A program made the translations under genes and the position numbers. The notes under the pieces are model-generated. The model made no database searches and was not told the DNA's origin. It was given only the letters and a program-made list of their open reading frames with translations. From a virus: a stretch of 64,000 nt of DNA. Location of the stretch: positions 1 to 64,000 of IMG/VR virus record IMGVR_UViG_3300045988_120048. One strand, 5' to 3'. This document shows positions 2,469 to 61,017 of the stretch, in pieces. Each line of letters opens with the position of its first letter. Position 1 is the first letter of the stretch.

Positions 2469-2469
2469 C

Positions 2470-4802: not shown

Positions 4803-4829
4803 CATTATTAACAATAAAAATATATAAGT

Positions 4830-17225: not shown

Positions 17226-17987
17226 ATGAAAGATTTTCAATTTTTAGATTACCACACGGAATATTCATGTAAAGGTGCCTTTAAGAAGGATATGGATGTA
17301 GAAGCATGCTTCTCATTCGTATTTAGACACACCGACGAGGAAAATGTAAGTGAAGAATATGAAGTTATCCTTTATAAGGGAACTGATTTTTCTAGAGAAA
17401 AGCATAATTCAAATTCGTGTCTCTTTACAAAGAAACAGATAAGGAACCATCTCAGACAAGCTCAAGGTATTTATCCATTCGATTTCTACATTACAGAAGT
17501 CACCAACTGGGGAGATGGTTATAATGTATTTAAGGTTCGCTTAAAACTCACTAACGTTCCTGGTACGTTTCATAAGTATCTTTTAACTTGGCTGAGATAT
17601 ATGTATGAGTACCCTTATAATGTTATCTTATATGATGCTTATAAGTTAAAAAAGGACCCATGCTTTAGGTTCACCTCTATGTCTGACTTGTTTAATCTTG
17701 TGCTAGGCTGTTTTAACGAAAATCCTAGAGATATTCATCAAATAGCTAGGAACCAAGTTAGCAAGACTATGTTAAAGAGAGACATTAGAGAGAAACTTCA
17801 GAATATCAAAATGTTAAATAACGTTTATGATAAGTTGAAGAATAAAGGCAATAACAACCAAATTCCAAATGAAGATGGAGATCTTACCACCTCTGATTTT
17901 GAATTTTGGGAAAGCGACGACATCTTCGAAAGACGAAGAAAGCCAGTTTACATGAATGTTTATAAAGAAGTAATAAAGAAGAAATGA
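17226..17987 (+). CDS. hypothetical protein
   Basis: ORF track, 253 aa. Confidence 0.45.
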   Translation: MKDFQFLDYHTEYSCKGAFKKDMDVEACFSFVFRHTDEENVSEEYEVILYKGTDFSREKHNSNSCLFTKKQIRNHLRQAQGIYPFDFYITEVTNWGDGYNVFKVRLKLTNVPGTFHKYLLTWLRYMYEYPYNVILYDAYKLKKDPCFRFTSMSDLFNLVLGCFNENPRDIHQIARNQVSKTMLKRDIREKLQNIKMLNNVYDKLKNKGNNNQIPNEDGDLTTSDFEFWESDDIFERRRKPVYMNVYKEVIKKK

Positions 17988-18613
17988 AGATTTATGTTGT
18001 AGGTGGAGCTGATAACTACGTCAACTTCATTGAAAATGTGCAGCTTGTTGATAAACTTGAAGATGCACAATTAGTAGTATTCACCGGCGGAGAAGATGTC
18101 ACACCTTCTCTTTATGGATGTAAGAAGCATAGAACTACTTATTCCAACCTTAGAAGAGATCAGGCAGAACAGGCTATCTTCAATAAGATAGACCCAAAGA
18201 AACAGGTTTGTCTTGGAATTTGCCGTGGATCTCAATTTCTATGTGTGATGAATGGTGGCAAGCTTGTCCAAAATGTGACGAGTCATGCTACTGGATTTAC
18301 CCATGGGATAACTGATGGCGACAAGATTTATCAAATAACTTCTACCCACCATCAGATGCAGTATCCATTTAATCTTAATGGGGAAGATTATGATATCCTG
18401 TTTGCATCTTATGGAGTAGAGAGTGACTATTATGAAGGGGAAGGAATAGACCCTAACGTTGTTCTTGGAAGAGAACCAGAAATTGTTTTATATCATAAGA
18501 AGGGATTGCCTAAGTGTCTCGCAGTACAAGGTCATCCTGAGATGATTCCTGATTCTCCTGTTGCTGAAATGATTAATAACCTTGTAAAAGATCTCGTAAA
18601 TGAAATTGCGTAA
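17984..18613 (+). CDS. class-I glutamine amidotransferase-like / gamma-glutamyl hydrolase (peptidase C26 family)
   Basis: GICRGSQF (nucleophile Cys), HH pair and AVQGHPE motifs characteristic of GATase1/C26. Confidence 0.65.
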   Translation: MKIYVVGGADNYVNFIENVQLVDKLEDAQLVVFTGGEDVTPSLYGCKKHRTTYSNLRRDQAEQAIFNKIDPKKQVCLGICRGSQFLCVMNGGKLVQNVTSHATGFTHGITDGDKIYQITSTHHQMQYPFNLNGEDYDILFASYGVESDYYEGEGIDPNVVLGREPEIVLYHKKGLPKCLAVQGHPEMIPDSPVAEMINNLVKDLVNEIA

Positions 18614-19067
18614 TGTAACTATTGGTGCAGACCCAGAACTGTTTATTATTAATGAGAAGACAAAGAAGGTAGTGTCTGCCGTTGGATTAATCCCTGGTGA
18701 AAAAGGCAATCCATGGAGATCTGATGATATGCCAGAGGGCTTTGGACTTGAGACTGATAATATTCTTGCAGAATTTAATATTCCTCCTGTTAAGGATGGA
18801 ATAAACTTTGTTAACAACATCGTTTATATGCAGGAGTATATAGATAAGTTTGTTAAGAGTAAAAATCCTGACCTTGGCATCAAATGTATAGCCTCCCAGA
18901 CCGTACCTACATCTGAATTGCAGAGCGATCAAGCTAAGCTTTTCGGATGTGATGTTGATTATAACGCCTATACAATGAAGGCAAACCCTAAGCCTAAGGG
19001 TACATCAACTAATCTTCGCTCTGCTGGTCGAATAAGTGAGGGCCAGAAGTATAGAAATATACAGTAG
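18600..19067 (+). CDS. amidoligase (COOH-NH2 ligase, glutamine-synthetase-like fold) 5' exon
   Basis: ADPELF N-terminus typical of phage Amidoligase_2 proteins. The ORF is broken by TAG and a LAGLIDADG gene; the C-terminal continuation (FHIHVGYENP...) resumes at 20192. Confidence 0.5.
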   Translation: MKLRNVTIGADPELFIINEKTKKVVSAVGLIPGEKGNPWRSDDMPEGFGLETDNILAEFNIPPVKDGINFVNNIVYMQEYIDKFVKSKNPDLGIKCIASQTVPTSELQSDQAKLFGCDVDYNAYTMKANPKPKGTSTNLRSAGRISEGQKYRNIQ

Positions 19068-20191
19068 AATTGCGTAAAAACGGTGAATGATAAATTCCTA
19101 TAAATAATTTTGAATTGCTGGAATAATTTTGTATTTTTGGTTAAATTAAGTTTAACTATAAAAATATCGAATTATGACAGAATTTCAACAAATTGTAATT
19201 AATCTAGTTAATGAAGGCAAAACTGTTTCCGAAATTGCAAAACAATTAAATAAAAATATGTCTTCAGTATCTTCAGTTGTTAAAAGATTTAATTTAACTC
19301 CTAAAAAAGCTTATGAAAATACTATCAAAGATGACTTTTTTGATGTAATAGACACAGAAGAAAAAGCCTATCTTTTAGGATTTTTTATAGCTGATGGATG
19401 TATAAATAAATCTACAAGTAGGTGTAAAGGTAGATTTTCAATTAATCAATCTGAAGATGATAAAGAAATTGTAAAAGCTTTTAAGGAGTATTTACAAGTA
19501 CCTTCAAAAATTCAATTAATAAATAATCAATCAGGTGTAAAACATAGAAAAACACAATGGAGAATTAGATGGACATCAGTTCATATGATGGAAACTATGG
19601 AAACTATTTATAATATACACCCACATAAAACTACAGATATTGAATTTGAATTTCCTATAAAATTAATTCCTGAAAATTTACAAGGACATTTTGTTCGAGG
19701 TTTTATTGATGGAGATGGTTATATGGGAAATAATGGAGAAATAAATAATTTTTCAGTAAGTATAGTAGGTGTAAGTGAAAAATTTCTTACTATGATTGGA
19801 GATTTAATTTCTAATACTACTGGAATGACTTACAATTTATATAAATCAAAAGGAAAAACTGTTGATTATATAAGTTTAAGATGGTTCTCTGAAGGTAAAA
19901 ATAAACTAGAAAAAATTACAAAATTAAAAGATTATTTATATAAAGATGCTACTATATATCTTTTTAGAAAGAAAAAAGAAATAGATGCATATATTAAATA
20001 CCGTGCTAATGTATTGAATAATATCAATACACAGTGTAACGCGTAGGAGATGAACCTGGAAACAGAATATAATTCTCCCAAGAGTGCGCAACCCTTAACA
20101 GATAATGCTGAAGGTGAAAATGTACGCTGAACTACTACGAAGGAATATAAGTAGTAGAATTAGAGGATAAAAAGCCTCTAAGATAACAAAA
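19068..20191 (+). mobile_element. intervening sequence (probable group I intron) carrying a LAGLIDADG homing endonuclease gene, splitting the amidoligase gene
   Basis: Host ORF broken at 19067 and resumed at 20192; HE ORF embedded; AT content markedly higher than flanks. Core intron elements not clearly recognised by eye. Confidence 0.5.
19174..20046 (+). CDS. LAGLIDADG homing endonuclease (double-motif)
   Basis: Motifs YLLGFFIADGCI and FVRGFIDGDGYM; N-terminal HTH-like segment; very AT-rich codon usage. Confidence 0.75.
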   Translation: MTEFQQIVINLVNEGKTVSEIAKQLNKNMSSVSSVVKRFNLTPKKAYENTIKDDFFDVIDTEEKAYLLGFFIADGCINKSTSRCKGRFSINQSEDDKEIVKAFKEYLQVPSKIQLINNQSGVKHRKTQWRIRWTSVHMMETMETIYNIHPHKTTDIEFEFPIKLIPENLQGHFVRGFIDGDGYMGNNGEINNFSVSIVGVSEKFLTMIGDLISNTTGMTYNLYKSKGKTVDYISLRWFSEGKNKLEKITKLKDYLYKDATIYLFRKKKEIDAYIKYRANVLNNINTQCNA

Positions 20192-20557
20192 TTGTTTCAC
20201 ATTCATGTGGGATATGAAAATCCTGACGTAGATACTAGTCTTGCTCTTGTAAAGTATATGGATGCCTTTTTAGGTATTCCTTCCGTCGTTAAGGATAAAG
20301 ATAAGAAACGTCGCTCTCTTTATGGTAAAGCCGGCTGCTTCCGTTTAACTGACTACGGTGTTGAGTACCGAGTTCTTAGTAGTGCAATGATGGGTTCCCC
20401 TTCTAAGTTGTCCTTCATCTGGAAGCAATTGCAGAAGGCTTTGAAAGCTTATCAGACCAACTATAGTCTTCCAAGTAGAGATTTAGTTCAGGAAGCCATT
20501 AATAACAGTAATGTTGAACTAGCTGAACAGTTAATAACTCATTATAATTTAGCATAA
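20192..20557 (+). CDS. amidoligase 3' exon
   Basis: Begins FHIHVGYENP (Amidoligase_2 catalytic His motif region). TTG in the track is probably not a real start; this is exon 2. Confidence 0.5.
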   Translation: MFHIHVGYENPDVDTSLALVKYMDAFLGIPSVVKDKDKKRRSLYGKAGCFRLTDYGVEYRVLSSAMMGSPSKLSFIWKQLQKALKAYQTNYSLPSRDLVQEAINNSNVELAEQLITHYNLA

Positions 20558-20559
20558 TT

Positions 20560-21906
20560 ATGTGTGGAATATTTGGTATCGTTACAAAGAGCATGAGGTC
20601 TTTTGACTTTCCAACTTTCTGTACATTAGGTATTGCTAATGACAGTAGAGGTGGTGACTCTTGTGGCTATTTTATTGATGGACACTACGAGTATGGAGCA
20701 AAAGGCGATGATAAGTGGTTCCAGTGTTTTTTCCAAGACAATAAGTTCCTTAATGAGCTTAAAATGAGTTCGGTAGCTTTTGGTCATTGTAGAAAAGCGT
20801 CTGTTGGTATCATCGACGAAACAACTGCTCAGCCAGTGGTACTTACTAATGCCAATGGAAAGGTAGAATATGTTCTAATGCATAATGGAACTATCTATAA
20901 TTACAAGGAGTTAGCTAAAAAATACATACCAGATATTGATATTACTGGTATGACTGACTCTCAGGTAATGGCTAGAATTTTCTATCGTTCTGGATACAAG
21001 GCACTCAGTGAGTATAACGGTGGAGCAGTGTTTGCAATTGCAGACTACCGTGGTGGAAAACCAAAGATTTTACTCTTTAAAGGAGCCTCCAAGAAAGACA
21101 AGTGGGATAAGAAGGAAACGGATGAACGTCCATTGTACTTCTGTGTCGATCCTATAAAGGGAGAGTTAATTTTCTCTTCTATTGCTTCTTATTTAATGTC
21201 TCTTAGACATAAGCTCACAACTTGGATTTTAAATCCAAATTGCCTCTTTGAGTTTAATGGTAAGGACTTAATTGCCGTTGAGGAAGTTTCTAGAGCCAAT
21301 GCTTGTCAAAGGAAGGAAACCGTATATGTAACTCCATCTAAATATGGTGGAAAATATTGGGGAGAATTTGGGCTGGAAGAAAGCAATGGTAATCTTTACG
21401 ACGATTTTATTTCGACTAACCAAGTAGATAATACTTATCATGGAAGGGGCAAAAAGCTCCAAGGACGAGTAATACTTAGTAAGTATGGAATGATGATGGA
21501 TGAAGCTCCTAAGAAGTCAACATATAAGGAGATATTCTTCTGGGATGGAGTTGCTCTTAAGAATGTTGCGTGCTTTCGATTTCTTACAGTCCTTAAGAAG
21601 GACAGCAAGCTCGAAGATAAAGAGTTTAATAAGAAGTTTAAGAACCTTATAAGGTATTTGAGCGTTGATGGTGTATATCATGAGAAGGATGTATGGTATC
21701 GAGCTACCTCTCCAACTAAGAGAGTTCCTTTTACAGGAACATTAAACATGATTACATCAACTTCTTCTACAGAATTTTTTGCTGGAAGCAGAAGAACTAC
21801 TAAATATGGTAGGACTTCTGATGAGGCATTTAGTTCTCTAGAGGAAGCTAAATTGGATGTTAATTTTAAAACAATTAAGGAAGAATGCAAGTCTTTGATG
21901 AAATAA
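20560..21906 (+). CDS. class-II (Ntn) glutamine amidotransferase domain protein
   Basis: N-terminal MCGIFGIV with catalytic Cys2, as in the Gn_AT_II family. Confidence 0.65.
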   Translation: MCGIFGIVTKSMRSFDFPTFCTLGIANDSRGGDSCGYFIDGHYEYGAKGDDKWFQCFFQDNKFLNELKMSSVAFGHCRKASVGIIDETTAQPVVLTNANGKVEYVLMHNGTIYNYKELAKKYIPDIDITGMTDSQVMARIFYRSGYKALSEYNGGAVFAIADYRGGKPKILLFKGASKKDKWDKKETDERPLYFCVDPIKGELIFSSIASYLMSLRHKLTTWILNPNCLFEFNGKDLIAVEEVSRANACQRKETVYVTPSKYGGKYWGEFGLEESNGNLYDDFISTNQVDNTYHGRGKKLQGRVILSKYGMMMDEAPKKSTYKEIFFWDGVALKNVACFRFLTVLKKDSKLEDKEFNKKFKNLIRYLSVDGVYHEKDVWYRATSPTKRVPFTGTLNMITSTSSTEFFAGSRRTTKYGRTSDEAFSSLEEAKLDVNFKTIKEECKSLMK

Positions 21907-22784
21907 CTAAAAGATGGGTGAGCTCTCGAAATTGTGCGAGGATTATCATCCAACAACTCCCAGAGCAAGTTATCTTCGGATATACTAGTAAGCCTGATAA
22001 GGTTGTTAGAGTTCTTATAGCTAGCTCTAGTGGGCATAGTAATTACTTTGAAACGGATTTAAATCTATATAAGGGGAAACTCTTGTATAGTAAGAGAAAT
22101 GGAGTATACTTTTCTCCTATCCATCACAACGAAGATTTTATACTTACAGAGCAGCTCATAAAGGGTTTCGGAGATTTTCCTTATATTCTTACTAGAAGGT
22201 ATGAAGCTGTAGAGAATTTCGATGCTTTCAATGGAAAGCAAGAAATCAAAGACCATGAAACTTTGTATCCCTTATCAAAATATTTAAAGTACACTTTTGG
22301 ACTGGAGTTCGAAACATCTCAAGGATATGTGCCTGAGGACGTATGTTATCGAGATGGATTAATCCCATTAAGGGATGGATCCATTACCGGACCAGAGTAC
22401 TCTACCGTTATACTGAAGGGAGGAGAGGGACTTTCTCTTCTTCATCAGCAGATAGAGACACTCAAAGAGTATACTAACTTTAATAAGGAATGCTCTCTAC
22501 ATGTTCATCTAGGAGGTTATCCTCTTAAGCCTGATACTATCTACAATCTTTATCTTGTATGTAAATCTATTGAACCTGAGCTGGAAAATATGCTTCCTGC
22601 TTTGACTTTCAATAGTGCTAGATATAAGGATAATGGTAAAGACTATTGTAAAAAGCTTGCTTTGTACGGTAGTTTTGAGGATATGTATTCACATCTAGTG
22701 GGAAGACAATTCTTCGGAAGCTTTACCCAAGCTCATCCTGATGATAAAGAACGAAAAAGAAAGTGGAATATACCAACTCGTTAG
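21885..22784 (+). CDS. amidoligase paralog, 5' exon
   Basis: FGLEFETSQG...SLHVHLGGY motifs of Amidoligase_2; ORF terminates at TAG-TAA immediately before intron-like sequence. Confidence 0.6.
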   Translation: MQVFDEITKRWVSSRNCARIIIQQLPEQVIFGYTSKPDKVVRVLIASSSGHSNYFETDLNLYKGKLLYSKRNGVYFSPIHHNEDFILTEQLIKGFGDFPYILTRRYEAVENFDAFNGKQEIKDHETLYPLSKYLKYTFGLEFETSQGYVPEDVCYRDGLIPLRDGSITGPEYSTVILKGGEGLSLLHQQIETLKEYTNFNKECSLHVHLGGYPLKPDTIYNLYLVCKSIEPELENMLPALTFNSARYKDNGKDYCKKLALYGSFEDMYSHLVGRQFFGSFTQAHPDDKERKRKWNIPTR

Positions 22785-24628: not shown

Positions 24629-26437
24629 ATGTTAACAGAAAGTTTAGTTATTGCAGGCGCAATAGTTGTGCTTGTAATCTTGACCCTCATCGGTCTTATG
24701 TCACGTTATCGTCGTTGTGCAAGTGATGAAATCTTGGTAGTCTTTGGTAAGACTGGCAAGAAAGTTGGAATTAATCCAGCAACTGGCAAGAAGGAAACAA
24801 CAATTCTTCCTTCTAAGATCATCCATGGCGGAGGTACCTTTGTATTCCCTGTAATTCAGGATTGGAAGAAGATGTCTCTGAAACCAATTCAGATTCAGAC
24901 AGAGGTAGAAGGTGTGTCAAGTCAGATGATTAAGGTCAAGATTCCGGTTACCTTGACTACTGGAATTGGTACAACTGATGTACTCATGCAAAATGCTGCA
25001 AGTCGTTTCCTGACTGCTAAACCTGATGAGATTTCTGCTCAAATTACTGATATTCTTATTGGTGAAATGCGTGCTTTGATGGCTACTATGACCATTGAAG
25101 AGATCAATGCTGACCGAATCAAGTTCCTTGGTAATGCTAAGGAGGATATTGAGACTGAATTGAACAAGGTAGGTTTCAGTATTATTAACATTAACAATGC
25201 TGATATTACTGATGATGCTGACTATATTAAGAATCTTGGTAAGAAGGCAGCTACCAAGGCAAAGGCTCAGGCTGAAGCAGACATCGCTGAGGAGGAAAAG
25301 AAGGGTGACATTCAGATTGCTGAAACCAATAAGGAGAAAGCAATTGCTGTAGCTGCTGCAGAGAAGGATCAAGCTACTCAGGTGGCTCAGACTAAGCAGG
25401 AGCAGGAAGTAAAGGTTGCCGAGATCGAGAAGAACAAGGCAATTAGTCTTGCAGAGGCTGATAAGACTAAGGAGTCTGAGGTTGCTAATCAGCAGGCTGA
25501 TAAGGAAGCTGCTACCGCTGCTGCACAGGCTCGTTCAGCTGCTGCTGTAGCAAAGTCTGAAGCAGATGCTCTTGCTGCACAGGCAGAGGCAGAGGCTGAG
25601 AAGAATATTCGTATGGCTAAGGCTGAACAGCAGCAGGAAGCTGAAACCAGAAAGGCTATTAATGAGCAGGAAGCTAAGGTAGCTGAGTATGATGCTGAAA
25701 AGCGTAAGCGTACAGCTGAAGCTAATAAGCAGGCAGGCGTAGCTGAGCAGACAGCAACTATTGAGGTTTCTAAGGCACAAGCTGAGGCTGCTAAGGCACA
25801 GGCTGAAGCAGTCCGTGTTGAGGGTGTATCTAAGGCTGAAGCTGAAGTAGCAATTGCTAAGAAGAATGCTGAAGCTAAGGAGGCACAGTTGAACGCTGAG
25901 TCTATTGTTCCTGCTCAGAAGAAGAAGGAAGCTGTAGTTATTGAGGCTGAGGCTGAGAAGCAGAAGAAGATTGTTGAGGCACAGGCTGAGGCTGAAGCAA
26001 TTAAGCAGAAAGCTTTAGCTGAGGCTCAGGCAATCCAGGCTAAGGCAGAAGCTGAGGCAGAGGGTAACAAGAAGAAACTCCTTGCTGAGGCAGAGGGTAA
26101 GCGTGCCTCTTTGATGGCTGAGGCTGATAAGGTTCAGGCTATTGAGATGGCTCCAGCACTTGCAATTGAGAAGATGATTGAGACAGGTATGACTCCGGAG
26201 ATGATTGTTCAGTATAAGACTGTCGATCAGCTTAAGGGTATTGCCGAAGCTCAGGCTGAGGTTTATGAGCATATCCATCTTGGTGAGGTTACTGTTTATG
26301 GTAACGAGAACACTGCTGGTAACTTCATGGCTTCAATGGCTGAGAATCTCAATCCAGCATTTGAACTTCTCAAGTCTATTCCTTTCAAGAAGACTCTCAA
26401 TGCTATAGCAGGCAAGGAAGAGGTCAAGAATGATTAA
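24629..26437 (+). CDS. flotillin-like SPFH/band-7 protein with long Ala/Glu/Lys-rich coiled coil
   Basis: N-terminal TM segment, SPFH-like region, then about 300 aa of EA/AEA/KAQAEA repeats (flotillin architecture). Confidence 0.7.
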   Translation: MLTESLVIAGAIVVLVILTLIGLMSRYRRCASDEILVVFGKTGKKVGINPATGKKETTILPSKIIHGGGTFVFPVIQDWKKMSLKPIQIQTEVEGVSSQMIKVKIPVTLTTGIGTTDVLMQNAASRFLTAKPDEISAQITDILIGEMRALMATMTIEEINADRIKFLGNAKEDIETELNKVGFSIININNADITDDADYIKNLGKKAATKAKAQAEADIAEEEKKGDIQIAETNKEKAIAVAAAEKDQATQVAQTKQEQEVKVAEIEKNKAISLAEADKTKESEVANQQADKEAATAAAQARSAAAVAKSEADALAAQAEAEAEKNIRMAKAEQQQEAETRKAINEQEAKVAEYDAEKRKRTAEANKQAGVAEQTATIEVSKAQAEAAKAQAEAVRVEGVSKAEAEVAIAKKNAEAKEAQLNAESIVPAQKKKEAVVIEAEAEKQKKIVEAQAEAEAIKQKALAEAQAIQAKAEAEAEGNKKKLLAEAEGKRASLMAEADKVQAIEMAPALAIEKMIETGMTPEMIVQYKTVDQLKGIAEAQAEVYEHIHLGEVTVYGNENTAGNFMASMAENLNPAFELLKSIPFKKTLNAIAGKEEVKND

Positions 26438-33674: not shown

Positions 33675-33746
33675 TGCACCTATAGGTTAATGGTTAGACT
33701 AGCGGTCTCCAAAATCGCAGATGGGAGTTCGATTCTCTCTGGGTGT
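33675..33746 (+). tRNA. tRNA-Trp (anticodon CCA)
   Basis: Acceptor GCACCTA/TGGGTGT (with G:U pairs), anticodon stem GCGGT/ATCGC with loop CTCCAAA, T-arm GGGAG-TTCGATT-CTCTC. Confidence 0.6.
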
Positions 33747-33765
33747 GCTAATTAAGTTTAGCAAT

Positions 33766-34071
33766 ATGGAAAATATAAAGGTAAAAGACGAAGAGATTAT
33801 CGTACCTTGTGATGACTCAGTTAATGAGTTATTTATTTGCCAATGTAATAACGTAGAACATCAACTTATTTTCTCATACTTTTCTGATGATGAGGATAAA
33901 GATGTCTATGTATCAGTACATTTATCTCCAGATTCTTTCTGGAAACGCATTTGGAACTCTATAAAGTACATATTCGGATATAGGTGCATGTTTGGTCACT
34001 TTGATGAATTTATCTTTAAGAAGCAAGATGCAGGCAAGTTACAAAGGGTAGTGGATTTTCTCAAGTCTTAA
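33766..34071 (+). CDS. hypothetical protein (likely start MENIKVKDEEI inside track ORF 33721-34071)
   Basis: ORF track; the upstream part overlaps tRNA-Trp, so the internal ATG is preferred. The printed sequence and the track appear to differ by one nt near 33840. Confidence 0.4.
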   Translation: MENIKVKDEEIIVPCDDSVNELFICQCNNVEHQLIFSYFSDDEDKDVYVSVHLSPDSFWKRIWNSIKYIFGYRCMFGHFDEFIFKKQDAGKLQRVVDFLKS

Positions 34072-34072: not shown

Positions 34073-34543
34073 ATGTTTAGGGCTTCTGTGAGAATTTTTC
34101 TTGCGGAAGCTTTTTTTTTTTCTATGTCTAGTTATAAGTTAATAACCGACGGTGCGTATTCATCTAAACTAGACCAAGGTGGACTTGGCTTAGTATTTTT
34201 AAAAGATGATAAGTTAATCCTTAGATATTCAAAGATGTATAAACATACTACAAATAATCAGATGGAACTAGGGGCAATTATTACTGGGCTAAAGTGTATT
34301 ACTAAGCCTATTGATAACCTAACTATTGTATCTGATAGTATGTATTGCATTGGATGTGCTACTAAGGGTTGGAAAAGAAGTAAAAATGTAAAGTTGTGGG
34401 AAGAGTTTGATAGGCAATATACTCGTGTATCCGAACTATGTCCAAATATTGTTTTTGAACATGTTAAAGGGCATAATGGTGATAAATGGAATGAATATTG
34501 CGACAAGCTTGCAACTACAGCTTCTAAAAGAATGGGAGATTAA
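34073..34543 (+). CDS. rnhA: ribonuclease HI
   Basis: Conserved RNase H residues/motifs: ...LGLVF...ELGAII...SDSMY...HVKGHNGDKWNEYCDKLA. Confidence 0.75.
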   Translation: MFRASVRIFLAEAFFFSMSSYKLITDGAYSSKLDQGGLGLVFLKDDKLILRYSKMYKHTTNNQMELGAIITGLKCITKPIDNLTIVSDSMYCIGCATKGWKRSKNVKLWEEFDRQYTRVSELCPNIVFEHVKGHNGDKWNEYCDKLATTASKRMGD

Positions 34544-34757: not shown

Positions 34758-35273
34758 ATGGTATCTGAAAACGGAACTAAAGTATGTTGTAAATGTGGAA
34801 AAGAGAAACCAGTGAGTGAGTTTCATAAAGACAAGAACTCAAGTGATGGTTATACCTATCAGTGTAAAGAATGTAGAAATGCAAAATACAAAGAGTATTA
34901 TCACTCTAACATTGATAAAATGAAAGAGAAACGGGAAAATACTAAGGAATATCGAAAAGAATATTATAGCGATCCAGAAAGGAAATTTCAGTATAGAAAA
35001 AGGTATATTGAACGAGAGTTCGGTATTAAATATGAGCAGTATGATAAGATGCTAGAGGCACAAGAGGGGGTATGCGCTATATGTGGCAAACCTGAAACGA
35101 AATCTAATGCTAAATATCTAGCGGTGGATCATAATCACGAAACTGGTGTAGTAAGAGGGTTACTGTGCAATAATTGTAATAGAGCCCTTGGTCTTCTCGG
35201 TGATAACGTGGAAACATTACAAAACGCAATAAATTATTTATTAAAACATGAGAGAAATAATAACAGCATGTGA
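34758..35273 (+). CDS. HNH endonuclease (endonuclease VII-like zinc-binding HNH)
   Basis: CxxC...CxxC N-terminal; LAVDHNHETGVVRGLLCNNCN. Confidence 0.7.
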   Translation: MVSENGTKVCCKCGKEKPVSEFHKDKNSSDGYTYQCKECRNAKYKEYYHSNIDKMKEKRENTKEYRKEYYSDPERKFQYRKRYIEREFGIKYEQYDKMLEAQEGVCAICGKPETKSNAKYLAVDHNHETGVVRGLLCNNCNRALGLLGDNVETLQNAINYLLKHERNNNSM

Positions 35274-36801
35274 TGGATATAAATTATCTCATCATCGTAT
35301 GTACCCAGAGGGTACACAAATGGTTTATAGTAACTGGACTCCAAGAAGTTGCCGTTACTTTCCAGAAGCCACAGAAGGCTCTGTAGTATTTGGTATTCAG
35401 TACTTTGTAAAGAAGTATTTGATTGAGGAATTTAACAAATGGTTTGCTCTTCCTAAGGAAGAAGCTATTAAGCAATTTGCTTATCGTGTAGGTAACTTTG
35501 TAGACCTTAATCAGGTTGGAACAAAGCATATTGAGGAACTTTATGATTTAGGATATCTTCCTATTGAAATTAAAGCTCTTCCTGAGGGTTCTATCTGCCC
35601 TATAAGGGTACCTATGATGACTATTAAGAATACTCTTCCGGACTTCTTCTGGTTGACTAATTATTTGGAGACTCTGATTAGCTGCACTCTATGGCTTCCT
35701 TGTACTTCTGCAACAAGTGCTCGTCTTTATAAGAAGAGACTTATGGAACATGCTAGAAAGACTGGATTCCCGGAGGAAGTAAATCTGGGTTTCTCCTGTC
35801 ACGATTTCTCAATGAGAGGTATGGCTGGACTTGATGCCGCTATTATCTCTGGTATGGCTCACATGACTTCATTCTGTGGTAGTGAAACAATTCCTGCTAT
35901 TGAAGCAGTAGAGCACTATTACAATGCAGATGTTACTAAAGAACTTGTAGCTGCAACTGTTCCAGCAACTGAACACAGTGTAATGTGTGCAGGAGGTGAG
36001 GACGATGAGATTGAAACATATCGTCGTCTTATTAATGACCTATATCCAACAGGTATTATCTCAATAGTATCTGATACTTGGGATTTCTGGCAGGTAGTTG
36101 AGAAGTTCTTGCCTAAGCTTAAGGCAGACATTATTAAGCGTGATGGTCGAGTAGTAATTCGTCCTGATAGTGGTGATCCAGTAGATATTATTTGTGGTCT
36201 TCGTACAAATCCTCATTATCACACTGCAATGAAGGAAGGCAAGTACTACTGTGATTTCAATCCATTTATGGATGATGATGAAAGTCATTATGTAGAAGTA
36301 TCTGAAGGTCAGTACTATGGAGCATATTATATGCTAGGCAAGATCTTTGGCTGGAATACTACTGTAAACGATTATCGTTATCCAAGTACCAAGGTAGGTT
36401 TGCTCTATGGAGATTCTATCACTCTGGAGCGTCAGCGTGATATCTATGCTCGATTAGAGAACGCTCATATGGCAGCTTGTAACCTCGTTCTCGGCATTGG
36501 ATCTTATACTTATCAGTTTAAGTCTCGTGATTCTTTGGGATTTGCAGTTAAAGCAACTGCATGTACTATTAAAGGACAACTTCGAGAAATCTTTAAGCAT
36601 CCAAAGACTGATGATGGAACGAAGAACTCCCTTAAAGGTCTTATTAGAGTTGAGGAGGAGAATGGCAAGTATGTTGCTTATGATCAGCAGACTAAGGATG
36701 CAGAACTGGGAGGCTGTCTTAAAACAGTCTTTGTAAACGGAGACTTAGTAAGAGAATATTCTCTTTCTGAGATTCGAGAACGTGTAAATTCAACACTATG
36801 A
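35248..36801 (+). CDS. nadV: nicotinamide phosphoribosyltransferase (NAMPT/NadV-like)
   Basis: Size of about 517 aa and the VVIRPDSGDPVD motif characteristic of NAMPT/NAPRT-family enzymes. Confidence 0.7.
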   Translation: MREIITACDGYKLSHHRMYPEGTQMVYSNWTPRSCRYFPEATEGSVVFGIQYFVKKYLIEEFNKWFALPKEEAIKQFAYRVGNFVDLNQVGTKHIEELYDLGYLPIEIKALPEGSICPIRVPMMTIKNTLPDFFWLTNYLETLISCTLWLPCTSATSARLYKKRLMEHARKTGFPEEVNLGFSCHDFSMRGMAGLDAAIISGMAHMTSFCGSETIPAIEAVEHYYNADVTKELVAATVPATEHSVMCAGGEDDEIETYRRLINDLYPTGIISIVSDTWDFWQVVEKFLPKLKADIIKRDGRVVIRPDSGDPVDIICGLRTNPHYHTAMKEGKYYCDFNPFMDDDESHYVEVSEGQYYGAYYMLGKIFGWNTTVNDYRYPSTKVGLLYGDSITLERQRDIYARLENAHMAACNLVLGIGSYTYQFKSRDSLGFAVKATACTIKGQLREIFKHPKTDDGTKNSLKGLIRVEEENGKYVAYDQQTKDAELGGCLKTVFVNGDLVREYSLSEIRERVNSTL

Positions 36802-37229
36802 AGCACCCATTCAATCAGCAAGCCTGCTTAGATAGGCTCAAAGGGGAGTATGATAAATACGGTAAGCTGATTGTTGCCTTTGACTTTGACAACACTATAT
36901 ATGACTTCCATAATAATGGAGGTGATTATAGTGAAGTCATTGAACTTTTAAAAGAATGTATTAAACTAGAGTTTGATCTCATTCTGTTTACCGTGGATGA
37001 GGATCCTGATAAAGTATCTGAGAAGGTACGATGGCTAGTATCTAATGATTTATGGAACTACAAGAGTTCCCATTTCTTTGTTAATACTAGTCCAATATTT
37101 AGCAGATCCAGAAAACCCTATTATAATATTCTGCTTGATGATAGAGCGGGATTGGAAGAAAGTTATAACATTTTAAAACAAGTTGTAGATTATGCAAATT
37201 CTAAATTTAGTAAATTTGGAGAAGAGTGA
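36798..37229 (+). CDS. HAD-superfamily hydrolase (phosphatase)
   Basis: Motif I FDFDNTI (DxDxT). Confidence 0.5.
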   Translation: MKHPFNQQACLDRLKGEYDKYGKLIVAFDFDNTIYDFHNNGGDYSEVIELLKECIKLEFDLILFTVDEDPDKVSEKVRWLVSNDLWNYKSSHFFVNTSPIFSRSRKPYYNILLDDRAGLEESYNILKQVVDYANSKFSKFGEE

Positions 37230-38001
37230 CATTAAGTATACTCTATCCAGATTTCCAGATGGGGAAGTACAAATTTCCTTAGGAGACTTCAGTCACAAAG
37301 ACCAAATCTGTGTAAAGTGTAGAATTACTAATGCTGAGGAGTTGTTCATTGTGACTCAGGTTCTCGACATTCTTGACAGACATGATGTCTGTTATGACGT
37401 CGATATATTTTATCTTATGGGAATGAGAATGGATAGAGTCATGGACTTTAACCGCCCATTTACTCTTAAGGTAATAACAAAGATGCTTGGTAATTCTAAC
37501 GCAGAAAATATTTCTGTTTTAGAGCCTCACTCAGATGCGATATACGACTATAGATTTGGAGACAAATTTAGAGCCTTGTATCCTGAGAAACATACACGCC
37601 CAGATGGTTGGACGGTTGATTATCAGTTAGTCTTACCAGACGCTGGAGCAGTGGAGCGCTACGAATATCTTGATAAAGATCCTATATCTTGCAGCAAAGT
37701 TCGTGATACAGCTACTGGCAAAATTTTAGAGATTAAAATAGACAATTCTGAAAAACTTGATGGTAGACCATTAATGATAATTGATGATTTGTGCGATGGA
37801 GGAGGAACCTTCTGTGGAATTGCAGAATGCTTCAAAAAGATTGGAATACCTAAAGACAGACTTAACATCTCTGTAGTTCATATGGTTAATCCTAAGGGCA
37901 TTGAGAATCTATCTAAGAATTTCAATCACGTATGGTTTACTAACTCTTATAAGGACTGGGAGAATCTTCCAGAAAATGTAACAATGATTAAAGTAGTATA
38001 A
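37192..38001 (+). CDS. prs: ribose-phosphate pyrophosphokinase (PRPP synthetase)
   Basis: N-terminal RFPDGEVQISL (compare Prs RFSDGEVSVQI) and PRPP-binding loop LMIIDDLCDGGGT. Confidence 0.65.
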   Translation: MQILNLVNLEKSDIKYTLSRFPDGEVQISLGDFSHKDQICVKCRITNAEELFIVTQVLDILDRHDVCYDVDIFYLMGMRMDRVMDFNRPFTLKVITKMLGNSNAENISVLEPHSDAIYDYRFGDKFRALYPEKHTRPDGWTVDYQLVLPDAGAVERYEYLDKDPISCSKVRDTATGKILEIKIDNSEKLDGRPLMIIDDLCDGGGTFCGIAECFKKIGIPKDRLNISVVHMVNPKGIENLSKNFNHVWFTNSYKDWENLPENVTMIKVV

Positions 38002-38135
38002 TATGAAGTACAAGAAGAAACTTGAAAATCTTAAAGCGGCACAGGCATGGTGGGATAAGCTTCCAGAACGCGATAAAGCTGGTTTAACCCGCCCAGGTGG
38101 AATAAATCAGAAAACAGCTGCCTCTGCTTAAGCTT

Positions 38136-39308
38136 ATGAGGAGAGTAGTTATTGTTGGAATGGGAATATATTCCAGCATAGGCACTAATAAAAAAGAGGT
38201 TCTAGAGTCTTTACGAAAGGGCTTCTGTGGAATTGGAATGGATCCATCTAGGGAAGGGTTTAACTCTAAACTAACTGGAATCGTCCCAATTCCAGATAAA
38301 ATACCTCAGCATATTAGAAGATATATGGCTCCTCAAACCTGCTATATGTACAATGCCCTAAACGAGGCTTTAGAAGATGCTCACTTAGAATGTCCTCCTG
38401 TTAACTGTGGATTAATTATTGGAAATGATAGTAGTTCTCAGGCTACAGTAGAGGCAGTAGAGTCCTATTCTAAACTCAAAAGGACTTCTAAGTTGGGTGC
38501 AACTCATGTTTTTAAGACATTAACTTCTAATCCTACAGCTGTTCTAAGTACATACTTTAGACTAGAGGGTCCATCCTTTAGTGTTGGGGGAGCATGTGCT
38601 TCTGGAGCTCACGCAATAGGAGTTAGCTATAACTTGATTGCTGGGGGCGCTGCAGACATTATAGCTGCAGGTGGATGTCAGGAGGTTAATCCTGCTGCCA
38701 CCTTTGCCTTTGATGCTATTGGAACTTTCTCAAAATCCACTATTCCTAAAGAAGCGGTTAAGCCCTTTGATAAGAATAGAGAGGGGTTAGTTCCTAGCGG
38801 TGGCGCAGCTTGTTTAATCTTAGCAGAAATGGATTGGGCATTGGAGCAGAATCTTCAAATTTATGGGGAGATAGTTGGATATGGAGCTAATTCTTCTAAT
38901 CATCTCTCGAAGAGTGATTTGAACGCTGAATTAGAGTGTATGCAGAAAGCCCTTAGGAACTATTCTCCTAATGATGTTAGTGTAATTAGTGCCCACGCTA
39001 CTGGTACAGTTGATGGCGATCTCAGTGAAGCAGGAGCTATACTAGGATTATTTGATAAATGTAGACCCTACATAAGTGCAACCAAGGCTCTTACTGGACA
39101 CGAAATGTGGGCAGCAGGGTCTACTGAAATAGTATATTCAATATTATCTAGTAAAGCTGGCTTTGTTCCACCTAATATTAATACTGAAGATGGTTCCTAC
39201 TCCCTTAATATCCATAGAGACTTAGTAGAAGTTGAATCCCCAAAGTTCATTTTGAGTAATTCCTTTGGACTAGGCGGTACTAACAGTTCAATATTAATTA
39301 AGTTATGA
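38136..39308 (+). CDS. beta-ketoacyl-ACP synthase (KAS I/II, FabF/FabB-like)
   Basis: Active-site Cys in GGACASGAHAIG; His motifs SAHATGT and ALTGHEMWAAG; C-terminal GGTNSS. Confidence 0.8.
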   Translation: MRRVVIVGMGIYSSIGTNKKEVLESLRKGFCGIGMDPSREGFNSKLTGIVPIPDKIPQHIRRYMAPQTCYMYNALNEALEDAHLECPPVNCGLIIGNDSSSQATVEAVESYSKLKRTSKLGATHVFKTLTSNPTAVLSTYFRLEGPSFSVGGACASGAHAIGVSYNLIAGGAADIIAAGGCQEVNPAATFAFDAIGTFSKSTIPKEAVKPFDKNREGLVPSGGAACLILAEMDWALEQNLQIYGEIVGYGANSSNHLSKSDLNAELECMQKALRNYSPNDVSVISAHATGTVDGDLSEAGAILGLFDKCRPYISATKALTGHEMWAAGSTEIVYSILSSKAGFVPPNINTEDGSYSLNIHRDLVEVESPKFILSNSFGLGGTNSSILIKL

Positions 39309-39553
39309 TAGAGGAAATAATTTCTGACATAATTCACTATATTACGGAAGACATAGGATACCCTGTGCAGTTGAATGAGAACAGCAATTTAGCAGATGAT
39401 GCAGGAATGGATAGTCTAGATACGGTAGATCTCCTAGGGCACCTTGAGGCTAAGTATGATGTTAAGTTCAACGAGGAGGATCATTCTATCTTTAAGAAAA
39501 GTATTCGTGAAATAGCGAAGTATACTGATTCACTAAGAGGAAATGAAGCATAA
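39305..39553 (+). CDS. acyl carrier protein
   Basis: DAGMDSLDTVDLL phosphopantetheine-attachment motif; 82 aa acidic. Confidence 0.75.
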   Translation: MIEEIISDIIHYITEDIGYPVQLNENSNLADDAGMDSLDTVDLLGHLEAKYDVKFNEEDHSIFKKSIREIAKYTDSLRGNEA

Positions 39554-47599: not shown

Positions 47600-48690
47600 A
47601 ACACATTAGATATTTTGAGAACCCACGAAATATTATTATATTTATATCATAATAATTAACTTAATTTATTTTTGATATGAATAGAAAATATAACGATTCT
47701 CAAATCATTGAATTACATTCTGCTGGTCTTACAGACCGAGAAATTGCTGAAACTCTTGGTGTATCTCCTAATAATCTTGCTACTAAGAGAAGGAAATTGG
47801 GACTTACTCCAAATAAAAGTAAGAGAGACACATATAAATTAACAAAGAAAGAATTAGAAATTTTAGTAGGAACCATATTAGGAGATTCTACTATTAGGTA
47901 TGTGCACAGTCAGTGCAAATATCCAAATCTAACTTTTTCACATGGACTTAACCAAAAGGAGTACTTCGATTGGCTTACTGATAAGTTATCTAATCTGAGA
48001 TCTTCCATCGGAAAATATAATTCTAAGTATATTAGAACAAACGGGGAAATCGCTGAAAGATTAGTTTATACAGGAAGTAATATGTTCTGTTTGAAAGAAC
48101 TTCGTGACGTTTTTTATACGAAAGAGGGAAAGAAAATTATCCCCATTGAGTATATCAAGAGTATCTTCTCTGAATTAAGTCTATATTGTTTATTTATGGA
48201 CGATGGAAGTTATGATATTAGAAGCAATAGCTATATAATTAATACACAATGTTTTTCTAGAGAAAATCTCGAAGAATTTGTATGTTTATTACATAACAAA
48301 TTTGGGCTTGATTTTAGTATTAAGTCTGATAATTGTCTATATCTAAAGCATTCGTCAAATGAACAAATGTATAAAATCCTTACTTCAGTAAATGAATGTA
48401 AATCAATGGACTACAAATGTGGTAGTCGTCGTAAAACTCCGTTAAACGGGGAAACCCCAGAAATGGACAATCCCGTGCTAAACCCTCAAGAAATTGAGGA
48501 AAATGCCGATCGACTAGAGGTGATGCCAAATAAGTAATGTTGTGGCTATAAAATCCTCCACGAAAGCGGGGCACTACTCAAAGTACAGTTCGAGAGAATA
48601 GGAAATGAGCCAAAGATATAGTCAGGACTATATAGTAATATATAGAACTGGAGGATAAAGAGCCTTCAGGATAACATATCGTTCCAGTAT
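47600..48690 (+). mobile_element. group I intron carrying a LAGLIDADG homing endonuclease, splitting the Sak4-like ATPase gene
   Basis: P/Q-like element TAAACGGGGAAACCCCAGAAATGGACAATCCCGTGCTAAAC at 48444-48485 (homologous copy in the ligase intron at 63790), S element AAGATATAGTC at about 48608, R-like GTTCGAGAGAATAG at about 48586. Confidence 0.65.
47677..48537 (+). CDS. LAGLIDADG homing endonuclease with N-terminal HTH
   Basis: Motifs ILVGTILGDSTI and LYCLFMDDGSY; N-terminal HTH (LTDREIAETLGVSPNNL). Confidence 0.7.
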   Translation: MNRKYNDSQIIELHSAGLTDREIAETLGVSPNNLATKRRKLGLTPNKSKRDTYKLTKKELEILVGTILGDSTIRYVHSQCKYPNLTFSHGLNQKEYFDWLTDKLSNLRSSIGKYNSKYIRTNGEIAERLVYTGSNMFCLKELRDVFYTKEGKKIIPIEYIKSIFSELSLYCLFMDDGSYDIRSNSYIINTQCFSRENLEEFVCLLHNKFGLDFSIKSDNCLYLKHSSNEQMYKILTSVNECKSMDYKCGSRRKTPLNGETPEMDNPVLNPQEIEENADRLEVMPNK

Positions 48691-60164: not shown

Positions 60165-60367
60165 TGGAAATAAAGAATCTTAAGTCCGTTTCGGATGATT
60201 TAAATAAGTATAGCTATGTAGCTAAAGAGGGGGATTATATAACTGTCACTGAGTGGGCTAACGGGGAAGGATGGGATATAGACCTTAACGGTACTCCTAT
60301 CAAACTCCATGACACCGAGCTTGCTGCAATTAATTATTTAACTCAGGTATTAATGTATGAAAAATGA
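60164..60367 (+). CDS. small hypothetical protein
   Basis: ORF track, 67 aa, tightly packed between nrdD and the phosphatase. Confidence 0.4.
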   Translation: MEIKNLKSVSDDLNKYSYVAKEGDYITVTEWANGEGWDIDLNGTPIKLHDTELAAINYLTQVLMYEK

Positions 60368-61007
60368 AATTTTAGTGATTCCAGATGTTCATGGGCGTGA
60401 TTTCTGGAAAGAACCTTGCAGAGAATGGGAGGGGAAGGTAGTCTTTTTAGGAGACTACCACGACCCATACCCTCAGCAGGTGAGTAAAAACAATTCCTTA
60501 GAAAATTTAAAAGTTCTTATAAATTTCTATGAGAATAACAAGTCCAGAGTAGTCTGCCTCTTAGGAAACCACGATGGCAACTACCTTATAATGGATGGGT
60601 TTGCTGATAGAGTTGACTATGGCAATTACCACGAAGTTACTTCCCTTCTAAAGAGGCTAGATCTTAAGGTTGCTTATCATGTTAATGATGTTCTATTTAG
60701 CCATGCTGGAGTCCTTCCTAAGTGGTTAAAGGTTAATAACCTCTCTATAGAGGATGTTCCGAACCTGAAATTTGATCATAAAGCCTTAACTGATGTATCT
60801 CCTTGGAGAGGAGGATTTTCGGAAGTTGGAGGAATCCTTTGGGGAGACGTTAGAGAGTATGCGTCAGAGGATCATATACCTGATCTCTATCAAGTCTTTG
60901 GACATACTCAAATGAAGAAAGAAATAATTCAACCTGACTTTGCTTGTCTAGACTGTAGGAAGTGTTTCATTATGGACTTAGATTCTAAGGAAATAAGGGA
61001 ATATTAA
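60357..61007 (+). CDS. metallophosphoesterase (PPP-family Ser/Thr phosphatase-like)
   Basis: Motifs IPDVHGR, GDYHD and GNHD. Confidence 0.7.
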   Translation: MKNEILVIPDVHGRDFWKEPCREWEGKVVFLGDYHDPYPQQVSKNNSLENLKVLINFYENNKSRVVCLLGNHDGNYLIMDGFADRVDYGNYHEVTSLLKRLDLKVAYHVNDVLFSHAGVLPKWLKVNNLSIEDVPNLKFDHKALTDVSPWRGGFSEVGGILWGDVREYASEDHIPDLYQVFGHTQMKKEIIQPDFACLDCRKCFIMDLDSKEIREY

Positions 61008-61017
61008 ATGTGAATGT

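Follow-up and report, generated by a model that had tools for sequence, protein, structure and literature searches.

A conserved HAD-type phosphatase gene within a probable NARP1 locus for NAD+ reconstitution in a virus

Gene organization of the locus

We analyzed 64,000 nucleotides of viral DNA (positions 1 to 64,000 of IMG/VR virus record IMGVR_UViG_3300045988_120048; hereafter the window) and focused on three genes at 35248-38001. The outer two encode a NAMPT-like and a Prs-like protein and very likely form the core of NARP1, a phage pathway that rebuilds NAD+ from ADP-ribose (ADPR) and nicotinamide. Between them lies the gene for a small phosphatase of the HAD superfamily. The three genes, assigned as argued below, are as follows:

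35248-36801, + strand: predicted Namat (nicotinamide ADP-ribose transferase), NAMPT-like, 517 amino acids (aa)
36798-37229, + strand: predicted capless (C0-type) HAD phosphatase of the DxDxT type, from a family without a name, 143 aa, 432 nt
37192-38001, + strand: predicted Adps (ADP-ribose pyrophosphokinase), Prs-like, 269 aa

A previous reading of this DNA from the sequence alone had described three contiguous, co-oriented genes at these coordinates, and the open reading frames (ORFs) fall exactly there, all on the + strand. The motifs it quoted are also present, IRPDSGDP at aa 304-311 of the NAMPT-like protein, and RFPDGEV (aa 20-26) and IIDDLCDGGGT (aa 196-206) in the Prs-like protein. The close packing of the genes suits co-translation: Namat ends and HAD begins within a shared ATGA (4-nt overlap), 38 nt are common to the HAD and Prs-like genes, and the endonuclease VII gene upstream (34758-35273), whose product has an N-terminal zinc-ribbon region, overlaps the Namat start by 26 nt. 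Namat and Adps lie on the same strand in overlapping frames, with the HAD gene as their sole spacer, an arrangement that agrees with the operational definition of NARP1, namely Adps and Namat in close proximity.

No convincing + strand terminator was found within the operon. A scan for sigma-70 promoters returned 20 sites against 22.5 expected by chance, a consensus that is probably inapplicable to a Bacteroidota host. The + strand carries all substantial genes of the window. A 175-kb IMG/VR viral contig matches the window, with the HAD gene 100%, Adps 99%, and Namat 97% identical. A megablast search against phage records returned a single relative, MT835492.1, which shows 72.5% identity across the Adps gene and carries no annotation.

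The Prs-like protein groups with Adps

The Prs-like protein had been taken for a bona fide phosphoribosyl pyrophosphate (PRPP) synthetase, a label that profile searches, the C-terminus, and phylogeny all contradict. The protein falls below the cut-off of all 12 NCBIfam Prs models, the best being TIGR01251 with 56 bits against 113. In the Pfam scan, neither Pribosyltran_N (PF13793) nor Pribosyl_synth (PF14572) was found; where Pribosyltran_N/Pribosyltran matches had been anticipated, only PF00156 appeared, below threshold. By this test the protein lies outside the class I PRPP synthetases, while control Prs sequences pass. The TIGR01251 scores (cut-off 113 bits) are as follows:

E. coli Prs: 423 bits
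Phocaeicola Prs: 357 bits
Mucilaginibacter Prs: 190 bits
ICP1 Adps (validated): 98 bits
Belinda Adps: 81 bits
Window protein: 56 bits
cr126_1 Adps: 55 bits

A neighbor-joining tree of 30 sequences (Poisson-corrected distances, 500 replicates) separates 9 cellular Prs from 21 phage Adps-like proteins with 100% bootstrap support. The window protein falls on the Adps side, which also holds the validated Adps of ICP1 and the SPbeta-like, Felixounavirus, and PaoP5 proteins, and thus shares with NARP1 members an Adps clade that stands apart from cellular Prs. Its C-terminus, NVTMIKVV, ends without the alpha11-alpha12 module, whereas E. coli Prs runs about 24 residues further in the alignment (269 aa for the window protein, 315 aa for E. 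coli Prs). Loss of this C-terminal module is a defining signature of Adps (PMC13586617). Two further elements bear on catalysis:

37693-37719, + strand: catalytic beta-hairpin SKVRDTATG, in which Lys169 aligns with the essential Lys185 of ICP1 Adps
37777-37812, + strand: PP loop IIDDLCDGGGTF, aa 196-207, which aligns with IVDDICDGAASF of ICP1

The K-x-R-D-x-x-T-G pattern of the hairpin recurs in the ICP1, Belinda, and cr126_1 proteins, and the K185A variant of ICP1 Adps does not form ADPR-PP (PMC13586617). At the position of the PP loop, E. coli Prs has LVDDMIDTGGTL. The loop core of the window protein, DDLCDGGGTF, can be compared with DDICDGAASF in ICP1 and DDMIDTGGTL in E. coli Prs; D212, D213, C215, D216, and F221 are the PP-loop residues in the solved structure of ICP1 Adps (PMC13586617). 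The catalytic lysine and an Adps-type PP loop are thus both present, and the ICP1 lid residue F223 is replaced by Gly in the window protein. A PDB sequence search with the window Adps returned weak matches to cellular PRPP synthetases (PRPS) only, with E values of at least 8e-9, and no ICP1 Adps entry.

The PHROG family phrog_619, named 'ribose-phosphate pyrophosphokinase', matches validated Adps and E. coli Prs alike, and its name is unreliable in phage annotation. We rejected PHROG membership as a test for Adps, as E. coli Prs outscores the window protein on phrog_619 (193 against 182 bits).

The NAMPT-like protein carries the Namat selectivity clamp

For the large protein, the anticipated assignment to the NAMPT/NAPRTase family was obtained, with profile matches to PF04095 and PF18127 and a score of 515.6 bits for NF006629 (cut-off 405). 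Its top PDB match is 9w5x, the Namat of SPbetaL1, at 489 bits, with human NAMPT at about 200 bits. Sequence identity is 64% to the homolog of crAss-like phage cr126_1, 50% to that of Bacillus phage Belinda, and 46% to that of ICP1. The elements considered here are the following:

35338-35358, + strand: selectivity-clamp loop (SCL) region TPRSCRY, aligned to 9w5x, with residue roles from PMC12774641
35965-35985, + strand: catalytic core ATEHSVM with His243, the phospho-histidine equivalent (four-sequence Namat alignment)
36157-36180, + strand: IRPDSGDP with R305 and D307 (four-sequence Namat alignment)
36499-36531, + strand: selectivity-clamp helix (SCH) motif GSYTYQFKSRD, aa 418-428, the published Namat signature

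The Namat signature is GSX-phi1-X-phi2-X-phi3-TRD with aromatic residues at X (PMC12774641). SPbetaL1 Namat carries GSFTYQYNTRD, and Xcc Nampt has GMGGALLQKVDRD at the SCH position. Y420 and F424 of the window protein are the counterparts of F392 and Y396, which stack on the adenine in SPbetaL1, and R36 in the SCL aligns with the adenine-stacking R40. Both halves of the selectivity clamp expected of a NARP1 member, the aromatic SCH and the SCL stacking residue, are therefore in place. The helix deviates at one position, with Ser in place of Thr ahead of RD, a change common to the window and cr126_1. Among the NAMPT-like genes of the HAD-linked loci described below, 80 of 88 encode the aromatic form.

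The core residues D9, Y11, F187, R190, H243, R305, D307, and D389 are invariant in the four-sequence alignment. R305 corresponds to R306 of SPbetaL1, mutation of which abolishes activity (PMC12774641; bioRxiv 10.1101/2024.02.11.579819). The window protein also has a 20-aa insertion, RTNPHYHTAMKEGKYYCDFN, at aa 319-338 (36202-36261), which is absent from the cr126_1, Belinda, ICP1, and SPbetaL1 proteins. Judged by these residues, the NAMPT-like protein carries the features of Namat, not those of Nampt.

Identity of the pathway

With its paired genes, Adps-type protein, and Namat-type clamp, the locus displays every feature of NARP1 that can be assessed from sequence, and we assign its core to NARP1 with high confidence. 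The sequence-only reading had proposed that ribose-5-phosphate is converted to PRPP and then to nicotinamide mononucleotide (NMN). Osterman et al. 2024 started from the same annotation-based scheme, PRPP followed by NMN, and disproved it by experiment: the purified Prs-like Adps gave no measurable PRPP-synthetase product and converted ADPR and ATP to ADPR-PP, and the NAMPT-like Namat preferred ADPR-PP over PRPP and formed NAD+ directly (bioRxiv 10.1101/2024.02.11.579819). The proposed chemistry is thus refuted for the homologous pair, and the window proteins carry Adps and Namat features.

Under the NARP1 assignment, a host NADase (TIR, SIR2, SEFIR, and similar) would split NAD+ into ADPR and nicotinamide. 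By homology, Adps would then move the beta,gamma-pyrophosphate of ATP onto the 1'' hydroxyl of ADPR, yielding ADPR-PP and AMP, and Namat would exchange the pyrophosphate for nicotinamide, producing NAD+ with neither NMN nor an NMN adenylyltransferase (NMNAT) involved. No NMNAT had been recognized in the window, and this holds: Pfam scans detected no domain of the NMNAT, Nudix, or Macro type in 49 ORFs of the window, and a regular-expression search of the window in six frames found no match to the HxGH motif or the Nudix box. Because NARP1 makes NAD+ directly, this absence is expected and leaves no gap in the pathway, and the idea that the host or another part of the genome supplies an NMNAT step loses its ground, as NARP1 requires none. 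NARP2 combines a KVP40-type Nampt lacking the aromatic clamp with an Nmnat; here, the clamp is present and the 64-kb window has no NMNAT or Nudix gene. Osterman et al. found Nmnat also encoded in 94% of phages with a KVP40-type Nampt, never found such a Nampt together with Adps, and found NARP1 and NARP2 together in no phage. NARP1 itself is present in 4.3% of sequenced phages.

The earlier reading was therefore right about the presence of NAD+ metabolism genes and their purpose, and wrong about the chemistry and the missing NMNAT. We agree with it that the module very probably counters NAD+-depleting defence systems.

Several observations weigh against the NARP1 assignment. Every enzyme activity at the locus is inferred. 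The window Adps is divergent, with 22-29% identity to reference Adps and 17-23% to Prs, and its phrog_619 score of 182 bits lies below the 193 bits of E. coli Prs. The Prs/Adps tree was built by a distance method from few taxa, with archaeal class III PRPS left out, and class III PRPS are likewise short and carry K-x-R-D-x-x-T-G (4twb). In Namat, Glu213 (35884-35886) stands in place of the nicotinamide-binding Asp215 of SPbetaL1, as it does in cr126_1. Finally, the search for an NMNAT covered 64 kb out of roughly 175 kb of genome.

The HAD protein belongs to an unannotated family

The protein encoded between Namat and Adps has the characteristics of the HAD superfamily, with a Rossmannoid fold and the DxDxT, S/T, K, and DD motifs:

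36882-36896, + strand: motif I DFDNT, aa 29-33 (Asp29 nucleophile, Asp31 acid/base), invariant in 52 homologs
36984-36992, + strand: motif II, Thr65 in LFT, at least 90% conserved
37110-37151, + strand: motif III Lys106 (RKPYYN) and motif IV Asp114-Asp115 (LLDDRAG, aa 112-118), invariant in 52 homologs

Across the 52 homologs, D29, D31, N32, T33, K106, D114, D115, and R116 are invariant. The protein has no Pfam match and matches phrog_1238 with E = 1e-18. It lies outside the BT0820 family (NF046079), scoring 25 bits against a cut-off of 165. A fold search matched the 3'-phosphatase domain of T4 Pnkp, class C acid phosphatases, 5'(3')-nucleotidases, IMP nucleotidase, and Pnkp1, as well as AfhF, a phage pentose-1,5-bisphosphate phosphatase. 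A PDB sequence search returned spurious matches only, such as a designed repeat protein. The family comprises 611 detected members; the 120 that were listed all lack both a Pfam domain and an informative name. In the searchable library, no paper turned up that connects NARP1 with HAD or haloacid enzymes, with BT0820, or with the name 'phosphoheptose isomerase'.

Two side observations concern annotation. The label of phrog_1238, 'phosphoheptose isomerase', is ill-suited to a HAD fold, and the members of this PHROG are HAD-fold phosphatases. A long HAD ORF at locus L071 (6010-6951) was considered as an informative fusion and rejected, since the part fused to it in frame is a NUMOD4/HNH homing endonuclease, which says nothing about function.

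The HAD gene is linked to Namat and Adps across genomes

To place the HAD gene in context, we examined 80 IMG/VR viral homologs with 38-100% identity to the window protein and 27 loci from bacterial genomes and metagenome-assembled genomes (MAGs). Of these 107 loci, 98 have the HAD gene together with both Namat and Adps, and at least four gene orders occur among them. Namat and Adps lie on the strand of the HAD gene in 75 of the 80 viral loci; when these are grouped into 18 clusters at 70% identity, the full triad occurs in 16 of them, in three gene orders. Among the bacterial genome and MAG loci, the triad is found in 23 of 27, with additional orders such as HAD-Adps-Namat in Cohnella. The remaining neighbors of the HAD loci are not conserved.

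Individual phages illustrate the rearrangements. In crAss-like phage cr126_1 (Crassvirales), the order is Namat-HAD-Adps, with start/stop overlaps on both sides of the HAD gene as in the window. Bacillus phage Belinda (Herelleviridae) has Adps-Namat-HAD, and in Lak megaphages the HAD gene adjoins Adps. In the phage record collection, the HAD gene occurs in 81 records and an Adps-like gene in 1513, with Bacillus phages contributing 54 of the HAD records and 84 of the Adps-positive ones. That the linkage is kept through rearrangement across unrelated phage families indicates a function, and we consider it likely that the HAD enzyme contributes functionally to the rebuilding of NAD+. The combined claim of a NARP1 core and a functionally linked HAD phosphatase, leaving aside what its substrate is, appears probable.

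The HAD gene is also found with a different NAD cluster. On a 245-kb contig (IMGVR_UViG_3300045988_175595; locus L077), positions 1044-6588 hold a one-strand series that encodes an isochorismatase-family (PncA-like) protein, an Adps-like protein, a NAMPT-like protein, and an NAD synthase (PF02540, 188 bits), and ends in a HAD homolog. The clamp region of its NAMPT-like protein, GSFSMQAIEENGVLKPFTRD, is not of the Namat type. This suggests a deamido route built on ADPR-PP, from nicotinamide through nicotinate and nicotinate adenine dinucleotide (NaAD) to NAD+; we found no description of a route of this kind.

Other loci speak against a simple link between the HAD enzyme and NARP1. Two (L113 and L120) carry the HAD gene with no NAD genes nearby. 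In four Mucilaginibacter chromosomes (L109, L110, L114, and L115), the HAD homolog sits beside a PRPP-type NadM-Nampt-Prs cluster, which encodes a NadM-like NMNAT-Nudix protein, a Nampt with the non-aromatic sequence GGALLQKVDRD, and a Prs with PF13793 and PF14572. In L110 (850-6351), two ORFs separate the cluster from the downstream HAD gene, and this gap differs among the four loci. The substrate of the HAD enzyme therefore need not be specific to ADPR-PP chemistry. A MAG contig (DAORGW010000032.1, 4139-6200; locus L121) encodes a homolog of Macro Adpp (E = 9e-38), Adps (overlapping start), and two small ORFs, and breaks off within its HAD gene; no other locus in our set combined the two candidate phosphatases in a NARP1 cluster. 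In addition, the nearest solved structure to the HAD protein, BT_0820 (PDB 2obb), is functionally uncharacterized.

Candidate function of the HAD enzyme

Two accessory enzymes of NARP1 have been described. The Macro-domain protein Adpp dephosphorylates ADPR-1''-P, the product of the RES-type defence protein aRES, and occurs in 15% of NARP1 operons (bioRxiv 10.64898/2026.01.28.702374). The glycosidase RyDEP opens cyclic ADPR signals and feeds linear ADPR to NARP1 (bioRxiv 10.64898/2026.05.28.727677). Given its gene context and fold, we hypothesized that the HAD enzyme would strip the phosphate from phospho-ADPR species that Adps cannot use and return them to the ADPR pool. By analogy with the known accessory enzymes, this is the most economical hypothesis, and the enzyme would then resemble Macro Adpp in its action while having an unrelated fold. 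Our analysis makes such a phosphatase, restoring ribose-1''-phosphorylated derivatives to the substrate pool, a serious but tentative candidate, with odds a little short of even, and the same grade applies to the broader statement that the enzyme acts on some phospho-ADPR species. More tentatively still, the HAD protein may define a class of NARP1 accessory enzyme not yet described, the third alongside Macro Adpp and RyDEP, serving the salvage or repair of ribose-1''-phosphorylated dead ends.

Candidate substrates of such a repair phosphatase would include ADPR-1''-P, ADPR-1'',2''-cyclic phosphate, and possibly PRPP-derived equivalents. The leading one is ADPR-1''-phosphate, which RES-type NADases would supply; that the enzyme acts on this compound specifically seems rather unlikely. 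The cyclic phosphate could arise through spontaneous decay of ADPR-PP, and 2'-phospho-ADPR, another candidate, could derive from NADP+. In vivo, ADPR-PP decays to ADPR-cyclic-phosphate (bioRxiv 10.1101/2024.02.11.579819), which makes relevant the precedent of T4 Pnkp, a capless DxDxT enzyme that removes 2',3'-cyclic, 2'-, and 3'-phosphates from ribose (PMC3592404).

One feature is common to the HAD-carrying clusters, namely a Prs-family enzyme whose product is a labile ribose-1-pyrophosphate, the input being ADPR. NadM carries a Nudix domain with ADPR pyrophosphatase activity, and ADPR plausibly also feeds the PRPP-type cluster for this reason.

Among narrower readings, the one that fares best is nested in this proposal: the HAD enzyme might strictly replace Macro Adpp by non-orthologous displacement, acting as the NARP1-AP phosphatase of Bacteroidota and Bacillota phages. 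The HAD gene occupies the same place in the operon as Adpp of Vibrio phage Gary (Adps-phosphatase-Namat), and the hosts listed with aRES homologs include Bacteroides, Prevotella, and Bacillus cereus, so that aRES occurs in hosts of this kind. A hidden Markov model (HMM) built from 11 published Adpp sequences (positive control E = 7e-59) detected no Macro Adpp, either in the window or among the 82 HAD loci of phages and viruses (80 IMG/VR contigs, cr126_1, and Belinda). The examined part of the published table of Macro-positive NARP1 operons (Table S1) names Vibrio, Pseudomonas, Acinetobacter, and Pseudoalteromonas phages and no Bacillus, Bacteroides, or Prevotella phage. The HAD gene occurs in Bacillus (54 of 84 Adps-positive records), Prevotella, and Bacteroides phages, so that, as far as this part of the table goes, the two host ranges look complementary, a pattern that is confounded by phylogeny. 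Strict mutual exclusion of HAD and Macro Adpp held in the 82 loci and was broken by the L121 contig, and we do not claim it. The coexistence of both phosphatases there means that the HAD enzyme is no simple Adpp replacement, and its position beside the PRPP-type cluster in Mucilaginibacter also argues against strict replacement, which we regard as doubtful.

An improbable alternative accepts NARP1 and makes the HAD enzyme a nucleotidase acting on a product of the pathway, whether AMP, NMN, or the pyrophosphate whose removal would pull the Namat reaction. AMP inhibits ICP1 Adps, leaving about 35% of activity at 500 uM (PMC13586617), the HAD gene adjoins Adps in most gene orders, and 5'-nucleotidases, IMP nucleotidase, and class C acid phosphatases are among its structural neighbors.

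Slightly less credible again is a generic phage phosphatase unrelated to NAD+ that neighbors NARP1 by chance among early genes, with a role in the deoxynucleoside monophosphate pool, in Pnkp-like healing of RNA or DNA ends, or in sugar-phosphate metabolism. The PHROGs name 'phosphoheptose isomerase' with its class of auxiliary metabolic gene, the fold matches to the T4 Pnkp and Pnkp1 phosphatase domains, and the two loci with no NAD genes are all compatible with this view. It is hard to reconcile with the adjacency to Namat and Adps described above, which spans unrelated phage families and bacterial chromosomes while other neighbors vary, with the codon overlaps that flank the HAD gene in the window and cr126_1, and with a HAD gene that follows NadE in L077.

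The least probable reading is the original scheme of a NARP2-like or classical salvage route, in which the Prs-like protein makes PRPP, the NAMPT-like protein makes NMN, and a host or unseen NMNAT completes NAD+: the Pfam and NCBIfam names favor it, Namat keeps about half of the NMN-forming activity of NAMPT in vitro when ADPR-PP is not supplied (PMC12774641), and the NMNAT search took in only part of the genome, but the experimental refutation for the homologous pair (bioRxiv 10.1101/2024.02.11.579819), the sub-threshold Prs scores and clustering with Adps, the adenine clamp that defines ADPR-PP specificity, the association of KVP40-type Nampt with Nmnat and never with Adps, and the genuine PRPP-type cluster of Mucilaginibacter, which differs on every count, all stand against it.

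Surrounding genes and probable host

Directly downstream of the NARP1 block, 38136-39553 encodes a beta-ketoacyl synthase (PF00109 and PF02801, 390 aa) and an acyl carrier protein (PF00550, 82 aa) in overlapping frames, a fatty-acid or polyketide-type pair that is unusual for a phage. A 42-aa ORF at 38003-38131 fills the gap between Adps and the beta-ketoacyl synthase. Upstream, a strong terminator-like hairpin at 34079-34113, with 16 pairs followed by a T-run, lies just 3' of the stop of ORF 33721-34071 and may mark the end of a transcription unit. It sits within the annotated 5' end of an RNase H ORF, the start of which is therefore probably a later Met, at about 34124.

Further upstream, an amidotransferase/amidoligase cluster at 17984-22784 may constitute a modification pathway; it contains a Peptidase_C26/GATase gene (17984-18613), a GATase_6/7 gene (20560-21906), and a weak Amidoligase_2 match (21885-22784). 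It is interrupted by a LAGLIDADG endonuclease gene at 19174-20046, one of two such genes in the window, the other being at 47677-48537; with the endonuclease VII gene next to Namat, the window thus has several endonucleases of the homing type. The window also encodes an SPFH/Band-7 protein of 602 aa (24629-26437). In cr126_1 (L001:5423-6214), an SPFH gene lies two genes downstream of the NARP1-HAD module, and SPFH genes may be recurrent neighbors of this module.

The region 57996-62468 encodes the anaerobic ribonucleotide reductase NrdD (PF13597, 268 bits, with ATP-cone), a calcineurin-like phosphoesterase, a dUTPase/dCTP-deaminase-like protein, and a 4Fe-4S domain protein (weak Fer4_12) that may be the NrdD activase. 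The NrdD set, a GC content of 35%, and relatives from human faeces and among Bacteroidales phages together indicate an anaerobic gut host.

Implications

NAD+ depletion is reportedly an antiviral strategy in >15-20% of bacteria. NARP1 is established and common, and the new element here is its conserved, unannotated HAD partner. In the sequence-only reading, the HAD protein had no pathway role, although within the module it is the one component that lacks an earlier description. Annotation pipelines and careful readers still label NARP1 genes as PRPP synthetase plus NAMPT and deduce an NMN route with a missing NMNAT. Discriminators that need only sequence are the curated Prs cut-offs, the C-terminal truncation, the aromatic Namat clamp, and the presence of an NMNAT, for which the genuine PRPP-type cluster of Mucilaginibacter serves as the contrast case.

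Phage NARP1 is countered by bacterial aRES-type enzymes that make ADPR derivatives unusable for the pathway, and a conserved HAD enzyme wired into NARP1 would add a layer to this arms race. The gene occurs in gut Bacteroidota phages, including crAss-like phages, Lak megaphages, and the lineage of about 175-190 kb to which the window belongs, and in most NARP1-carrying Bacillus Herelleviridae. If a third accessory class proves correct, it would widen the range of NAD+-depleting defences that Bacteroidota and Bacillota phages overcome and would explain why the same HAD gene lies beside bacterial PRPP-type NAD clusters. The HAD enzyme may also reveal non-canonical NAD+ cleavage products of gut anaerobes.

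Comparison with known systems

Among individual phosphatases, the HAD protein lies too far under the family cut-off to be a member with BT_0820 (NF046079), and T4 Pnkp differs from it in acting on nucleic-acid ends and in being fused to a kinase.

Compared with bacterial and phage systems that share its enzyme families, the locus is not NARP2 and holds no bona fide Prs/Nampt pair. NARP2 and the bacterial NadV-Prs-NadM salvage route (KVP40 NadV/NatV; Mucilaginibacter L110) also use NAMPT- and Prs-family proteins to obtain NAD+ from nicotinamide, but they need an NMNAT (NatV or NadM), PRPP, and NMN, which have no place in the window pathway. The L110 cluster in particular has a non-aromatic GGALLQKVDRD Nampt and a threshold-passing Prs (190 bits), and the window has neither.

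Two NARP1 variants resemble the locus in carrying an accessory gene. In NARP1-AP (Adpp; Vibrio phage Gary; bioRxiv 10.64898/2026.01.28.702374), the operon likewise has three genes with a phosphatase between or beside Adps and Namat, and the logic may plausibly be shared, with phosphorylated ADPR converted to ADPR for use by NARP1. The window phosphatase is a capless HAD enzyme of the DxDxT type and no homolog of Macro Adpp, so that the locus is not a strict Macro-type NARP1-AP. RyDEP-NARP1 of mycobacteriophage DyoEdafos (bioRxiv 10.64898/2026.05.28.727677) also has an accessory enzyme inserted in the operon; this enzyme, RyDEP, cleaves cyclic ADPR immune signals as a glycosidase and is unrelated to the HAD phosphatase in fold and chemistry.

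The closest counterpart is NARP1 as described by Osterman et al. 2024 for Bas63, SPbetaL1, Fado, and ICP1. Both have a co-oriented, translationally coupled Adps and Namat pair, the aromatic clamp, the PP loop, the catalytic lysine, the C-terminal truncation, no NMNAT, and a predicted counter-defence role. The window differs in gene order, with Namat first, Adps last, and a third gene between them, whereas Bas63, SPbetaL1, and ICP1 have a two-gene Adps-Namat arrangement. It also differs in its divergent Adps (22-29% identity), in Glu213 and the 20-aa insertion of Namat, and in its probable host, an anaerobic gut member of the Bacteroidota, a group in which NARP1 has had no experimental study.

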